Source of the DNA: Patescibacteria group bacterium
GTDB lineage: Bacteria; Patescibacteriota; Minisyncoccia; Phycocordibacterales; Phycocordibacteraceae
Assembly (NCBI GenBank): GCA_038064495.1
Contig: JBBTSZ010000008.1
Location: 1 to 50,439, forward strand
Length of the DNA stretch: 50,439 bases
Direction: 5' to 3'
This document shows, in pieces, positions 9,488-50,439 of this stretch. Position 1 is the stretch's first letter. Each line of letters opens with the position of its first letter. The position numbers and the translations under genes were made by a program. The notes under the pieces were generated by a model, which was not told the DNA's origin, did not search any database, and saw only the letters and a list, made by a program, of their open reading frames with translations.

Positions 9488-9559
9488 GCCTCCGTAGTTC
9501 AATGGATAGAACACCGGACTTCTAAGCCGATTATGTAAGTTCGATTCTTACCGGAGGCA
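9488..9559 (+). tRNA. tRNA-Arg(UCU), no encoded CCA
   Basis: Perfect acceptor (GCCTCCG/CGGAGGC), D stem and T stem, with anticodon loop CTTCTAA. The anticodon stem is weak: 3 GC pairs flanked by mismatches. Confidence 0.75.
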
Positions 9560-9577: not shown

Positions 9578-9650
9578 TGGGCGCTAGAGGACTCGAACCT
9601 CTGACCATCCCGGTGTAAACGGGGCGCTCTACCAACTGAGCTAAGCGCCC
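9578..9650 (-). tRNA. tRNA-Val(UAC), no encoded CCA
   Basis: Reverse complement GGGCGCT TA GCTC AGTTGGTA GAGC G CCCCG TTTACAC CGGGA TGGTC AGAGG TTCGAGT CCTCT AGCGCCC A. Confidence 0.85.
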
Positions 9651-13013: not shown

Positions 13014-13090
13014 GGCGGCCTTAGCTCAGCTGGTAGAGCTCTGGTTTGTGGTACCAGTGGTCGTGGGTTCGAGCCCCACAGGTCGCCCCA
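13014..13090 (+). tRNA. tRNA-His(GUG) with encoded G-1 and CCA
   Basis: G(-1) GCGGCCT TA GCTC AGCTGGTA GAGC T CTGGT TTGTGGT ACCAG..GTGGG TTCGAGC CCCAC AGGTCGC C CCA. Confidence 0.9.
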
Positions 13091-23237: not shown

Positions 23238-23324
23238 GATTGCACTGCTCCGGCTAGTGCGATATGGTCGCTAACGGGCCAGTACACGGGGTATGGGCTC
23301 AACTACCTCATAGGGAGAGAAATA

Positions 23325-23521
23325 TGAGTTTTGCTGAATTCAGCAGTCCGCAAACAACGTTCCGTCGTGTTCGGCCAGGGAAAGAGGGTCGTACACCGTC
23401 ACACGCAGCCAAGATAGACAGCCAGATTGCTATTTTTCAGGGGAACGGCGGACCGCGTCCGGCCTCGGGAGTTGAGCGGTTTAGCTCTCGGTTTGGTACC
23501 CTCGGTTTGTTCAAGACCTGA
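23325..23521 (+). CDS. possible small basic protein (65 aa); alternatively a non-coding ileS leader
   Basis: ATG preceded by gggagagaaat, which resembles the ileS RBS ggagagaac, and followed after 15 nt by a strong terminator. No recognisable family and unchecked codon usage, so low confidence. Confidence 0.35.
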
Positions 23522-23536
23522 TTCATTGCCTGTTTG

Positions 23537-23571
23537 AAAGGCCGGCGCGTGTGCGCCGGCCTTTGTCTTTT
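23537..23571 (+). terminator. strong intrinsic terminator upstream of ileS
   Basis: aaaggccggcgc gtgt gcgccggccttt gtctttt. The upstream segment gcgtccggcct (23455-23466) could pair with the 5' arm as an alternative structure. Confidence 0.8.
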
Positions 23572-23599
23572 GTGGCCTAAACGCTAGGATGGAGAGAAC

Positions 23600-26500
23600 A
23601 TGTCTAGTCCTGATGATTCAGTCAAATCAGACGCCGCACTCCGTGAAGAGGAGATACTGAAGTTCTGGAAAGAGCAGCAGATCTTTGAGAAATCTCTTGA
23701 ACGGGGAAGCGAAGACAATGTATTCGTCTTTTATGAGGGACCTCCGACCGCTAACGGAAAACCCGGCGTGCATCACATGGAGTCCCGTTCCTTTAAAGAT
23801 GCGATTCCACGTTACAAAACGATGCGTGGCTTTCGTGTACCACGTCGTGCTGGGTGGGATACCCACGGCCTTCCAGTTGAGCTTGAAGTAGAAAAGACAC
23901 TCGGATTCAAAGGCAAGCAAGATATTGAAGAGTACGGTATCGCTGCGTTCAATAAGAAATGTCGCGAAAGTGTCTTTTCGTACATCGGGCAGTGGGAAAA
24001 GTTTACAGAGCGTCTTGGGTATTGGGTGGACCAAAAGAAGGCCTACTTTACGTTTGATGCTTCCTACATGGAGTCCCTGTTCTCCATCTTTAAAAAAATT
24101 AACGATGATGGACACCTTTATAAGGATTATCGTGTGGTTCCTTGGTGCGTGCACTGCGGTACGGCACTTTCCAGTCATGAGCTTGCACAAGGATACGAAG
24201 ACGTAAAAGATCTTTCACTCACTGCAAAGTTTGAACTCGTAGATGAACCAGGTACCTATCTCCTCGCCTGGACCACCACACCCTGGACGCTTCCCGGGAA
24301 CGTTGCCCTTGCTGTTGGGGATGATATTCAGTACGTAGTCTTTAAGAGATTTACTGGCTGGGATAATTCAGGCAAGGCCCAGTACGAGAAAGTGATACTG
24401 GCTGAAAGTATTTTCCAGCAGGTTCTTGAGAATCCAGCTCTGCTGAAAGCAGAACCCTTCAACCTTCTTTTTCAAGAAACCCCTGAGGGATATGATGTTG
24501 TGACAGATTATTCTTACGAAACAAAGAAAATAATGGGAAGGGAGCTGGTTGGGAAAAGATACAAGCCACTCTACGACTTCGCCCACGCACTTGCTCCGGA
24601 AATAGAAAAGCCAAAGTTTGAAAAAGCATTCCAGGTATATGCAGCTGACTTCGTAACTACTGAAAGTGGAACCGGTATTGTGCACACGGCCGTTATGTAT
24701 GGACAAGATGACTTTGAACTTGGAAACAAGGTTGGACTTCCTAAAATGCACCTCGTTGCACAGGACGGAACCTTTATAAAGGGTACAGGAATGTTTACTG
24801 GCATGTCAGTGATTGAACCAGAGACAAATGTTGAAGTGTTAAAGGAACTTCAAAAGCGCGACCTCGTCTTTTCCAAAGAGACCCACACTCACTCGTACCC
24901 GCACTGCTGGCGTTCTAAGAATCGTCTTATCTACTACGCACGAGACTCGTGGTACATCCGTATGACGGCACTACGCGACACACTCATCTCAGAAAACCAA
25001 ACCGTGCATTGGGAACCTGACCACATCCGCGACGGCCGCATGGGCGAATGGCTTCTAAACGTAAAAGACTGGGCCATCTCACGCGAACGCTATTGGGGAA
25101 CACCAATGCCACTGTGGCAGAGCGCGGACGGTTCGGAACGTCTCGTCATTGGCTCGGTTGCTGAGCTCAAACAGCACACCAAAAAAAGCGGAAACACGTA
25201 TACCATCATGCGTCACGGGGAGGCCGAGAATAATATTCTGGATATCGCAAGCTCGCATCTTGGAGAAGAACACCATCTGACTGAAGAGGGAAGAGTAACG
25301 GTACGGAAATACGCAGAATCCCTGAAGGACAAGATAGATTACATTTTCTATTCACCACTTACTCGTACACGAGAGACGGCAGAAGTGGTAAACGAAGTTC
25401 TTGGACTCCCTTCCGAACGGTTCATCAAACATGACCGTATTCGTGAAATTAACGCCGGTATTTACGAAGGCAAGGGATGGGTTACGGAATATTTGCCTCA
25501 ATTTGCGTCAGTTGAAGAACGTTTCTCTCGTGTACCGGAAGGTGGTGAGTCTCTTGAACACGTGCGAAAGCGCATGGGAGATTTTATCTACGAGACTGAA
25601 CACGGCTATACCAACTCGCGCATACTTATTGTTTCTCATGGTGATCCGCTCTGGCTCCTCACACTGCTTGCTCATGGCGGGACAATAAAAGAACTTGAAA
25701 CAACAGCCTATCCAGATCGAGGAGTACCGCTTCCACTCGATTTTGTTCCACTTCCACATAATGAGAATTACGAACTTGATTTGCATCGACCGTACATTGA
25801 CGACGTTGTGCTGGTATCGGAACGGGGTACCGAACTGCACCGAGTAAAAGAAGTCATGGATGTGTGGTTTGACTCAGGTTCCATGCCGTTCGCGCAAGAC
25901 CACTACCCATTTGAAAACAAAGAGTGGATTGATACGAAAGGCTATCCGGCCGGATTTATCTCAGAAGCCATTGATCAAACGCGAGGGTGGTTCTATACGC
26001 TTCTTGCTGTCGGTACGCTCATGGGCAAGGGAACTCCCTATAAGAATGTGATTTGTCTTGGACATCTTCTTGATGAGAAGGGTCTGAAGATGAGTAAGTC
26101 AAAAGGCAATATCATCGAGCCGATGGCTGCCATGGACCGATACGGAGCAGACACGCTCCGGTATTGGATGTATAGCGTAAACCAGCCAGGGGACAGTAAG
26201 AGTTTTGATGAGAAGACCGTAAAGGAAGCGGCACGAGTTATTTCTTGGTTTGAAAACTCCGTGAAGTTTTTTGAGCTCTTTAAGGACGGAACGGCAGAGG
26301 GCAAGGAAGAAATTATTGATGTGTGGATGCGTTCACGAACGAACGAAACGATGAAAAAGGTAACTGAAGCGCTTGATCAGTACGATTTCTACACGGCAAC
26401 GCGTGCCATCGGCACTCTCGTAGAGGATTTATCGCAGTGGTACGTACGGCGCGTTCGTGACCGCGTTCGTGATGGTGACGCTGTTGCCCTTGAAACACTC

Positions 26501-27037
26501 CGTGAGACGCTTGAGAAGATTGCACTTCTCCTTGCACCACTCGCTCCCTTTGTTTCAGAGTGGGCATACCAAATCGTGAAGGGAAACGATGGCAGAGAAA
26601 GTGTCCACTTAGCTGACTGGCCACAGACTGGGGACGTAGATCAGAAAAGTATTACCAATATGGAGCGTACGCGCTCGCTTGCTTCAGAAGCATTCCGTAT
26701 TCGTCAGACTTCGGGTATCAAAGTACGACAACCACTGGCCTCACTTTCCATTCCAGAAGCGCTCCCGGTAGAATTCGCAGCGCTTCTTGCTGAAGAAGTA
26801 AATGTGCAGGAAGTTATTCAAAATAGTGAGGTGATGTCGCTTGATACAACACTCACCCCGGTTCTTATTGAAGAGGGAACGAAGCGTGAGTTTGATCGCG
26901 CACTTGCTGAAGCGCGCAAGACTATGGGACTTTCACCGAGGGATAAGGCGCACTATGAATTGGCTGAGGATGGGCAGTACGTTGTGGAGCTACCAGAAGG
27001 CCCAAAGCGATTTAACGTCATTATCGATGCGACATAA
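23600..27037 (+). CDS. ileS: isoleucine--tRNA ligase with an inserted histidine-phosphatase (PGAM-like) domain
   Basis: PPTANGKPGVHH (HIGH region), WTTTPWTLPGN editing domain, KMSKSKGN. Residues ~530-722 carry RHGEAENN, SPLTRTRETA and VSHGD. Confidence 0.92.
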   Translation: MSSPDDSVKSDAALREEEILKFWKEQQIFEKSLERGSEDNVFVFYEGPPTANGKPGVHHMESRSFKDAIPRYKTMRGFRVPRRAGWDTHGLPVELEVEKTLGFKGKQDIEEYGIAAFNKKCRESVFSYIGQWEKFTERLGYWVDQKKAYFTFDASYMESLFSIFKKINDDGHLYKDYRVVPWCVHCGTALSSHELAQGYEDVKDLSLTAKFELVDEPGTYLLAWTTTPWTLPGNVALAVGDDIQYVVFKRFTGWDNSGKAQYEKVILAESIFQQVLENPALLKAEPFNLLFQETPEGYDVVTDYSYETKKIMGRELVGKRYKPLYDFAHALAPEIEKPKFEKAFQVYAADFVTTESGTGIVHTAVMYGQDDFELGNKVGLPKMHLVAQDGTFIKGTGMFTGMSVIEPETNVEVLKELQKRDLVFSKETHTHSYPHCWRSKNRLIYYARDSWYIRMTALRDTLISENQTVHWEPDHIRDGRMGEWLLNVKDWAISRERYWGTPMPLWQSADGSERLVIGSVAELKQHTKKSGNTYTIMRHGEAENNILDIASSHLGEEHHLTEEGRVTVRKYAESLKDKIDYIFYSPLTRTRETAEVVNEVLGLPSERFIKHDRIREINAGIYEGKGWVTEYLPQFASVEERFSRVPEGGESLEHVRKRMGDFIYETEHGYTNSRILIVSHGDPLWLLTLLAHGGTIKELETTAYPDRGVPLPLDFVPLPHNENYELDLHRPYIDDVVLVSERGTELHRVKEVMDVWFDSGSMPFAQDHYPFENKEWIDTKGYPAGFISEAIDQTRGWFYTLLAVGTLMGKGTPYKNVICLGHLLDEKGLKMSKSKGNIIEPMAAMDRYGADTLRYWMYSVNQPGDSKSFDEKTVKEAARVISWFENSVKFFELFKDGTAEGKEEIIDVWMRSRTNETMKKVTEALDQYDFYTATRAIGTLVEDLSQWYVRRVRDRVRDGDAVALETLRETLEKIALLLAPLAPFVSEWAYQIVKGNDGRESVHLADWPQTGDVDQKSITNMERTRSLASEAFRIRQTSGIKVRQPLASLSIPEALPVEFAALLAEEVNVQEVIQNSEVMSLDTTLTPVLIEEGTKREFDRALAEARKTMGLSPRDKAHYELAEDGQYVVELPEGPKRFNVIIDAT

Positions 27038-49614: not shown

Positions 49615-50439
<825 letters not shown>

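Follow-up and report, generated by a model that had tools for sequence, protein, structure and literature searches.

A histidine-phosphatase domain embedded in the isoleucyl-tRNA synthetase of a Patescibacteria group bacterium and its relatives

Aminoacyl-tRNA synthetases are counted among the most conserved enzymes, and new catalytic modules within their cores are rare and usually informative, the editing domain being the classic example. Relationships of the Rosetta-stone type, in which genes adjacent in an operon in some organisms are fused in others, are familiar among translation factors. The histidine-phosphatase (His_Phos) superfamily, which comes into play below, includes protein phosphatases such as SixA, Sts and PGAM5. 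For an isoleucyl-tRNA synthetase (IleRS) carrying an extra enzyme domain there is a catalogued precedent, namely the N-acetyltransferase domain-containing family NF040702 (ileS_w_GNAT) of NCBIfam. In type-2 enzymes (IleRS2) the G/AXHH variant of the class I signature motif is tied to mupirocin hyper-resistance according to Brkic et al. (2023, PMC10485003). Here, we describe the ileS gene found on contig JBBTSZ010000008.1 of a Patescibacteria group bacterium (assembly GCA_038064495.1), referred to below as the window (the whole analysed stretch of 50,439 nt), whose product contains a His_Phos domain in the middle of its catalytic domain, and we address the reality of this arrangement, its distribution in the Candidate Phyla Radiation (CPR), its probable origin and the function which may be ascribed to it.

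The original prediction, made from the letters of the window alone, regarded ileS as a single uninterrupted open reading frame (ORF) of 1145 codons enclosing a histidine-phosphatase domain, and both parts of this view are sustained: the frame contains zero internal stops (Table 1), and Pfam family PF00300 matches the whole protein over aa 536-701 (E 1e-28, 100.7 bits against a cutoff of 21.7, profile positions 3-168 of 194) and the insert alone at E 3e-30 (105.7 bits). The Pfam match to tRNA-synt_1 is broken into two stretches around the phosphatase domain. In the alignment with the IleRS2 structure 8c8w_A residues 8-527 of the window protein correspond to 6-478 and residues 723-1080 to 483-851, about 195 inserted residues standing in for about four residues of the insert-free enzyme. 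The span proposed at the outset, 25187-25765, is correct at its 3′ end, while its 5′ end had to be shifted to 25181, i.e., by 6 nt outwards. The four motifs by which the domain was recognized are found where they were reported, RHGEAENN at aa 538-545 (nt 25211-25234), SPLTRTRETA at aa 585-594, EINAGIYEG at aa 616-624 and VSHGD at aa 678-682; PDB and family alignments agree with the proposed position of the insertion within the IleRS catalytic domain, approximately 105 residues upstream of KMSKS, and the flanks ...GSVAELK and ELDLHRPYIDD, named as neighbours in other IleRS sequences, do adjoin in insert-free IleRS2.

According to alignment with insert-free IleRS of related lineages, the W-A-I-S-R-E-R-Y-W-G motif is followed by a hairpin, and the insertion point is located at its tip. 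In insert-free enzymes this hairpin is stapled by a CxxC...CxxC zinc knuckle, and in the insert-bearing clade all four cysteines are gone, their places being taken in the window by QSAD (aa 507-510, 25118-25129) and SERG (aa 740-743, 25817-25828). Loss of the cysteines is not obligatory for the presence of the insert, since in the divergent IleRS P0327 an insert at this very point of the hairpin coexists with the knuckle cysteines. The chain returns to the synthetase through a Pro-rich linker, in which F715 and P719 are invariant and P717, L718, H720 and N721 are conserved in at least 90% of sequences in the family alignment (A1); this linker is missing from the aligned stand-alone proteins considered below.

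That a separate phosphatase only looks fused to ileS owing to chimeric assembly, frameshift or an intein-like element is hardly credible. Two Logan contigs from independent groundwater runs (11.5 kb at ~11x and 19.3 kb at ~26x) span positions 24900-26100 with 0 differences, 0 gaps and no joints, the support for the junctions thus coming from independently assembled single-run contigs rather than raw reads, and the identical protein is present on at least five contigs, one of them the 93-kb contig of the metagenome-assembled genome GCA_964357455.1. Among full-length homologs, of which hundreds of distinct ones are available, the best 120 (identity 58-68%, length 1093-1182 aa) all combine PF00300 with IleRS domains. 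A scan of a genome collection gave 80 species-representative loci labelled Nomurabacteria, Paceibacterota, Parcubacteria, Minisyncoccia, Taylorbacteria and similar (here and below taxon labels are the depositors' own), and in each of the 80 a six-frame search with the hidden Markov model (HMM) of the insert detected exactly one copy, always inside a single open ileS frame; no second phosphatase copy was detected within ~6 kb by this search in any of them. The 544 matches in the collection are not taken as a count of insert bearers: verification covered the 80 loci, and the total may include insert-free IleRS, two search patterns being located in the body of the synthetase. The suspicion of an artefact could draw upon one related locus carrying the gene in four frames and upon the H-N dipeptide conserved at the C-terminal junction, which superficially resembles an intein end. 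The first is an exception derived from a long-read contig. As for the second, the residue following H-N is E, D or Q in 6 aligned embedded sequences and never the Cys, Ser or Thr required for splicing. An intein was therefore rejected: H720-N721 is followed by E in the window, leaving no +1 nucleophile, the fold is PGAM-like and not Hint, and the free homologs are ordinary enzymes. We consider the embedded architecture real with near certainty, and the misassembly or frameshift that might have undone the original prediction did not materialize.

The exceptional locus, L092:1102-4635, is an insert-bearing ileS split in a long-read contig into four ORFs (frames 0, 1, 2, 0), representing either a pseudogene or indel errors, and fragments of this kind account for many short proteins on long contigs among the homologs. 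Proteins of 915-979 aa with the phosphatase domain at ~260 were considered as IleRS lacking CP1 or as a split gene and were dismissed as truncations because the N-terminal ~260 residues, signature motif included, are missing from P0273, whose gene starts 103 nt from a contig end.

As judged by profile, signature motif, KMSKS and CP1 editing motifs, the host protein is a full IleRS. It scores 817.4 bits with the ileS equivalog TIGR00392 (cutoff 621.4) as against ~400 bits with ValRS models, and its closest relatives in PDB are the IleRS2 structures 8c8w and 8c8u, plus 1ile. The class I signature is represented by GVHH instead of HxGH, a variant kept throughout the insert-bearing clade and shared by 4 of the 5 aligned relatives of the operon type (i.e., with the phosphatase encoded separately near ileS); H59 is invariant and G56 and H58 are at least 90% conserved in the family alignment. 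The editing motifs WTTTPWT and GTGIVH of CP1 are invariant or nearly so across the insert-bearing IleRS family. Position of the gene between argS and recO, conserved in relatives, suggests that it is a putative housekeeping ileS, and assignment of the host to CPR, anticipated from the start, agrees with its named relatives, which point to a Paceibacteria-type groundwater bacterium.

Table 1. Positions of the features of the window and of the stand-alone phosphatase genes in related loci (coordinates are those of the window unless a locus is named; aa numbering refers to the 1145-aa protein).
Feature	Location	Strand	Basis or remark
ileS	23600..27037	+	single 1145-aa ORF, ATG start, no internal stop; type-2 IleRS with embedded phosphatase domain
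His_Phos_1 domain with linkers, aa 528-722	25181..25765	+	PF00300, alignment to 8c8w_A and insert-free IleRS, AlphaFold2
RHG motif: R538, nucleophile H539, G540	25211..25219	+	R and H in 248/248 aligned embedded copies; invariant in the family alignment
R589, second phosphate-binding Arg (SPLTRTRETA)	25364..25366	+	253/253 embedded copies
E616, presumed general acid (REINAGIYEG)	25445..25447	+	E in 245/253, D in 5/253 embedded copies
H680, second catalytic His (VSHGD)	25637..25639	+	253/253 embedded copies
Pro-rich return linker F-V-P-L-P-H-N-E, aa 715-722	25742..25765	+	embedded copies only
N-side arm of host hairpin, aa 507-527, QSADGSERLVIGSVAELKQHT	25118..25180	+	first CxxC of ancestral zinc knuckle replaced by QSAD
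C-side arm of host hairpin, aa 723-750, NYELDLHRPYIDDVVLVSERGTELHRVK	25766..25849	+	second CxxC replaced by SERG; 8c8w alignment restarts at aa 723
Class I signature motif, non-canonical G-V-H-H, aa 56-59 within PPTANGKPGVHH	23765..23776	+	sequence, family alignment
KMSKS loop, aa 830-834	26087..26101	+	invariant in the family alignment
argS-ileS spacer, 360 nt, relatively GC-rich	23238..23599		position of the stand-alone phosphatase gene in relatives
Stand-alone phosphatase P0098	L083		upstream of ileS, gap 0 nt
Stand-alone phosphatase P0105	L085		upstream of ileS, gap 1 nt
Stand-alone phosphatase P0093	L088		overlaps ileS start, 4 nt
Stand-alone phosphatase P0090	L090		overlaps ileS start, 11 nt
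Stand-alone phosphatase P0072	L082 (Moraniibacteriota)		~1 kb upstream of ileS
Stand-alone phosphatase P0107	L091		~1.6 kb upstream of ileS
Stand-alone phosphatase P0109	L086		adjoins ileS, convergent

The embedded phosphatase is the defining trait of a large CPR clade of IleRS, and comparison within this clade permits evaluating its active site. Wherever the alignment covers them, R538, H539, R589, H680 and S585 are unchanged throughout the 253 embedded copies, while position 616 holds E in 97% and D in 2% of the copies and E650 and R658 are retained in 98-99%; in the proteins with two or four copies which were checked (P0272, P0287, P0293 and P0303) the catalytic set is preserved in every copy. 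At the same time, median pairwise identity is 41% for the insert as compared with 57% for the IleRS body. On these alignments the catalytic set is under purifying selection within a fast-evolving domain. The statement of the original prediction that the expected catalytic residues appear intact holds for R538, H539, R589, E616 and H680 both in the window and, at 97-100%, in the 253 embedded copies, and its expectation that the insert folds on its own is borne out by AlphaFold2 models: block-mean values of the predicted local distance difference test (pLDDT) range from ~82 to 96 over aa 531-720 of the full-length model, and the model of the domain only has pLDDT 90 and a predicted template modelling score (pTM) of 0.89. 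When this predicted structure was compared with PDB by Foldseek, the best template modelling scores (~0.75-0.77) were obtained for PspA (4ij5/4ij6), monomeric PGAM (1fzt), PhoE (1h2e), a mycobacterial hydrolase (6s2q), CobC (6e4b/6nru) and GpgP (4qih), with probability 1.00 to PspA, PhoE, CobC and GpgP. Capped small-molecule enzymes make up the whole list of 50 matches, in which no entry bears the description of a protein phosphatase.

Attempts to attribute the insert, scanned alone, to a named family gave scores below the curated cutoff in each case, so membership in dPGM, PspA, CobC, GpmB and SixA was rejected. Phosphoglycerate mutase (dPGM) models yielded 15.8 bits against 81.7 (TIGR01258), 71.6 against 225 (NF038349, dPGM_arch) and 27.7 against 316 (PRK01295), and those of named phosphatases 54.7 against 350 (PspA), 62.3 against 162.9 (CobC, TIGR03162), 41.9 against 261 (GpmB) and 31.8 against 74.5 (SixA). 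The option of a mutase, initially left beside that of a phosphatase, is unlikely because dPGM scores are far under cutoff and the nearest folds are mostly phosphatases. By its profile scores, the insert is a member of His_Phos branch 1 outside every named equivalog family, and conserved residues together with the predicted fold make it probable that the embedded domain is a catalytically competent phosphatase.

The window case is not singular: the same phosphatase subfamily exists as an operon-linked stand-alone form, at other IleRS loops and in ValRS. Three further loop positions of IleRS are occupied in P0272 and P0287. In P0272 (1419 aa, 6 assemblies, contigs up to 1.06 Mb), the zinc hairpin has no phosphatase, one copy lies between ...CWFESGSMPYA and ...EGLDQTRGWF, and another one follows KMSKS just before the anticodon-binding domain; P0287 carries copies after the second CxxC and before DQTRGWF, plus the start of a third after KMSKS. 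The four-copy protein P0293 scores as ValRS (411 and 381 bits with ValRS models against 199 with the IleRS model), and 70 of the 120 best matches to it are ValRS with Val_tRNA-synt_C and 1-3 complete phosphatase copies. Named ValRS carriers are Gracilibacteria or Peregrinibacteria (P0293 and P0386-P0504, 1-4 copies). In 71 of 84 instances the domain is situated between W-x-I-S-R-Q and D-T-W-F-S-S, in the loop homologous to the window's site, and in 10 of 84 between Q-W-F and I-S-R-Q. All 83 of the 83 ValRS-hosted domains form one clade in the neighbour-joining (NJ) tree; their R-H...R triad is kept at ~100%, E616 at 70% and H680 at 89%, and the 30% of copies without the Glu often have acidic residues at position -3 or +2. 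A Nomurabacteria ValRS found among the matches to P0293 has no insert, which hints that a lineage may use one host enzyme or the other, IleRS or ValRS. No phosphatase neighbour of an insert-free valS was seen in the two loci checked. The above-mentioned P0327 (1066 aa, one 11.3-kb JGI contig) is peculiar in other respects as well. Besides the phosphatase, which occupies the same site as in the window, it possesses an in-frame domain of a REP-associated tyrosine transposase (RAYT/IS200-like) in CP1 (aa ~326-472; NF047646, 81 bits against a cutoff of 80) and, in the loop preceding DQTRGWF, a GNAT acetyltransferase, right after which the protein stops.

An exhaustive search with the insert alone brought up 5748 relatives when E ≤ 1e-3 was required and 538 with the limit set to E ≤ 1e-10. 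IleRS-embedded copies rank first among them, ahead of free proteins of ~190 aa at ~40-46% identity, and by named sequences the subfamily is mainly CPR. It is not strictly confined to CPR since P0303, a tandem two-domain protein of 404 aa occurring on 16 contigs, is labelled Candidatus Woesearchaeota (DPANN archaea). The free proteins align end to end with aa ~528-716 of the window protein, as exemplified by LKNKYFILRHGE...ILIVSHGDPLWLLEG versus KKSGNTYTIMRHGE...ILIVSHGDPLWLLTL. Genomic context was sampled for eight candidates, and seven of them are true stand-alone genes; P0104, belonging to the locus L092 discussed above, was removed as a frameshifted embedded ileS (frames 0, 1, 2, 0). All seven are linked to ileS, and four abut or overlap its start (Table 1). 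The gene order common to the window and the stand-alone loci is argS, the phosphatase gene (replaced in the window by the spacer), ileS, recO, a gene for a DUF11/CLIPPER-like protein and a class II synthetase gene. IleRS of the stand-alone loci are 942-1063 aa long, and the 1145 aa of the window enzyme make up roughly 950 + 195. The argS-ileS spacer of the window yielded no phosphatase remnant at E ≤ 1e-3 in a six-frame scan with the insert HMM; its spurious-looking ORF of 85 aa has no Pfam match, and the spacer matches no Rfam family at gathering score; it may be a leader, a promoter region or a decayed gene. An upstream and an embedded copy together were found in none of the 80 scanned loci. 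In the NJ tree, 70 embedded copies stand apart from the 7 stand-alone ones, and 67 of the 70 IleRS bodies form one clade. We infer from these comparisons that the insert derives from a ~190-aa phosphatase gene located directly upstream of ileS in related CPR lineages; the tree and the separate occurrence of the two forms are consistent with the neighbouring gene having moved into ileS once, in an ancestor of the clade. At one of the operon-type loci (CP064989.1, Moraniibacteriota), the insert-free ileS is overlapped at its stop by a gene, L082:12843-13376, for a kinase-like P-loop protein of 177 aa (70 bits with AAA_33 and 46 bits with Zeta_toxin), so that the phosphatase gene and the kinase-like gene flank ileS, an arrangement seen once.

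With regard to function, the explanation that appears to us the best overall, and that we hold with moderate confidence, is a synthetase-associated phosphomonoesterase acting in cis. IleRS would perform normal two-step aminoacylation, given that signature, KMSKS and editing motifs are intact, and the domain tethered to it would be an active phosphomonoesterase. By virtue of superfamily membership, H539 would accept the phosphoryl group, held by R538, R589 and H680, and E616 would protonate the leaving group. The substrate may be guessed as a small nucleotide-type phosphomonoester met at the synthetase, such as a 3′(2′)-phosphorylated tRNA acceptor end or nucleotide that blocks charging, or the product AMP, although any particular substrate named at present is doubtful. 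The single-stranded CCA end of tRNA is able to enter small pockets. There is also a precedent for phosphoryl groups on the CCA end blocking the charging (10.1101/2021.04.30.441581; PMC11559606). The bolder version, according to which the phosphatase constitutes a built-in repair or immunity device stripping inhibitory phosphoryl groups from the tRNA acceptor end (3′-phosphate, products of CCA-end pyrophosphorylation) or from the IleRS active-site loop, is rather improbable; if it were true, IleRS, and ValRS in other CPR lineages, would be self-defending against phosphorylation-type attack by toxins, phages or hosts.

Several observations weigh against the proposed cis-acting phosphomonoesterase. 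Insertion sites are scattered over the synthetase, one of them lying between KMSKS and the anticodon-binding domain, which argues against a single fixed geometry beside the CCA end, and the full-length AlphaFold2 model is unusable for inter-domain geometry (pTM 0.48, pLDDT of the Rossmann core below 50). Neither the acidity of the embedded domain (median isoelectric point, pI, 5.8) nor its small-molecule-type fold favours extensive tRNA binding, even though charge, which for stand-alone copies varies over pI 5.3-10.3, is weakly informative in this respect because it tracks genome composition. In a ValRS sub-clade the second catalytic His is changed to Asn (FVTNRS; 8 of 57 single-copy proteins), so catalysis cannot be essential in every case. 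The upstream position of the stand-alone gene lies in a conserved housekeeping-gene block of dense genomes, for which reason adjacency alone is weak evidence of shared function, and the trees are rough NJ reconstructions on BLOSUM distances without outgroups.

The main rival account supposes a tethered but independent housekeeping phosphatase (acting, e.g., on phosphoserine, sugar- or acid-phosphate), whose gene happened to be next door to a hairpin tip tolerant of insertion and whose fusion persists since both parts are needed. On balance we find it unlikely, yet it deserves the most serious consideration among the alternatives. It is in keeping with the metabolic small-molecule phosphatases being the closest structures and with the housekeeping surroundings of the upstream gene; the insertion loops are surface sites that accept other domains too (GNAT and the RAYT transposase in P0327), and their variety suggests that geometry is not critical. 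What it accounts for poorly is the repetition: adjacency explains end-to-end fusions and not easily internal insertions at a number of IleRS loops and in ValRS, whose domains form a clade of their own, from which we conclude that physical coupling of the phosphatase to class Ia synthetases is probably under selection. Besides, the linkage of all seven stand-alone relatives to ileS (in four cases directly at, or across, its start), the failure to match curated metabolic families (PspA, CobC and dPGM_arch alike) and the rigid conserved Pro-rich return linker, suggestive of a fixed pose, do not sit well with an enzyme indifferent to its host.

Two further possibilities assign the domain to IleRS itself. 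As a cis-acting protein phosphatase, it would dephosphorylate the synthetase, e.g., at a Ser in or near KMSKS, undoing inhibition by HipA/HipT-type or Hanks-type kinases. Membership of protein phosphatases in the superfamily and the location of the insert in the catalytic domain upstream of KMSKS lend this idea some appeal, and kinase toxins do inactivate the class I synthetases GltX and TrpS (PMC6581861). We nevertheless regard it as very unlikely, considering that 0 of the 50 listed fold matches is described as a protein phosphatase, that the SixA model stays well under its cutoff, and that the kinase-like gene overlapping the ileS stop at L082, which might have been its counterpart, was seen once and encodes an AAA_33/Zeta-type P-loop protein rather than a Hip or Hanks kinase. 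Alternatively, the insert could be a ligand-sensing or structural module, binding a phosphorylated metabolite or replacing the lost zinc staple, with allosteric tuning as its role and hydrolysis secondary or absent, as the disappearance of the four knuckle cysteines from the insert-bearing clade and the nearly complete retention of phosphate-binding R, H and R in ValRS copies, against weaker retention of E616 and H680, might imply. To this reading we ascribe an equally slim chance: the full catalytic set, H680 and E616 included, is essentially invariant in the IleRS family, P0327 combines the insert with the cysteines and so excludes simple zinc replacement, and stand-alone relatives exist as free enzymes.

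Across a large CPR clade an essential synthetase thus houses a second, apparently active enzyme within its catalytic domain, as sequences and models indicate. Taken together with the stand-alone form and the embedding in ValRS and at further loops, this suggests a hitherto unrecognised step tied to Ile- and Val-tRNA charging in minimal genomes. A soluble enzyme, a clear active-site position, H539, and an insert-free natural comparator make it a natural test system. Automated labels such as "class I tRNA ligase family protein" or "histidine phosphatase family protein, partial" conceal the arrangement, and metabolic reconstructions could miscount the embedded domain as phosphoglycerate mutase. 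The impression of the original prediction that no IleRS of this kind had been described is upheld, in that no paper describing a phosphatase within IleRS or ValRS was found in literature searches, and the insert goes unmentioned in PMC10485003 and in a 2026 preprint annotating domain architectures of 96,219 IleRS sequences. Public databases hold many such sequences under automatic Pfam labels and generic names, so the phosphatase-bearing IleRS appears to be undescribed rather than unseen. Elsewhere in the window, the 5′ part of a 23S rRNA gene (model positions 1-766) occupies 49615-50439, and six tRNA genes are located at 1-65, 2742-2813, 5731-5815, 9488-9559, 9578-9650 and 13015-13087.

Compared with the described members of His_Phos branch 1 (PspA 4ij5, PhoE 1h2e, CobC 6e4b and GpgP 4qih, ~200 aa each), the insert is alike in the RHG motif, two arginines, second histidine, acidic residue, alpha/beta fold and size, and differs from the named enzymes in falling under each equivalog cutoff, in being embedded in, or encoded upstream of, another enzyme and in belonging to a mainly-CPR subfamily. 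The host resembles the G/AXHH IleRS2 of known structure (Brkic et al., 2023, PMC10485003; 8c8w) in GVHH, KMSKS, CP1 motifs and whole-length alignment save for the insert, but has a ~195-aa enzyme domain at the hairpin tip, between chain residues 478 and 483 of 8c8w, and is devoid of the four cysteines of the hairpin. With respect to NF040702, accessory chemistry is different, the window protein scoring 324.7 bits against a cutoff of 1999 and having no acetyltransferase Pfam match; a likeness to that family is provided by P0327, whose GNAT domain sits in the IleRS loop that hosts the phosphatase in other lineages. Hydrolases reversing the CCA-end pyrophosphorylation by toxSAS (10.1101/2021.04.30.441581; PMC11559606) offer a conceptual precedent of a phosphorylated tRNA 3′ end in need of a hydrolase, and the likeness is conceptual only, as they come from another enzyme family and occur unfused to synthetases. 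As in Rosetta-stone cases, some lineages encode the phosphatase in a separate upstream gene, often overlapping the ileS start, and others carry it within the synthetase polypeptide; unlike the usual end-to-end fusions, it has been inserted into an internal loop of the catalytic domain, and such embedding recurs at other loops and in a paralogous synthetase.

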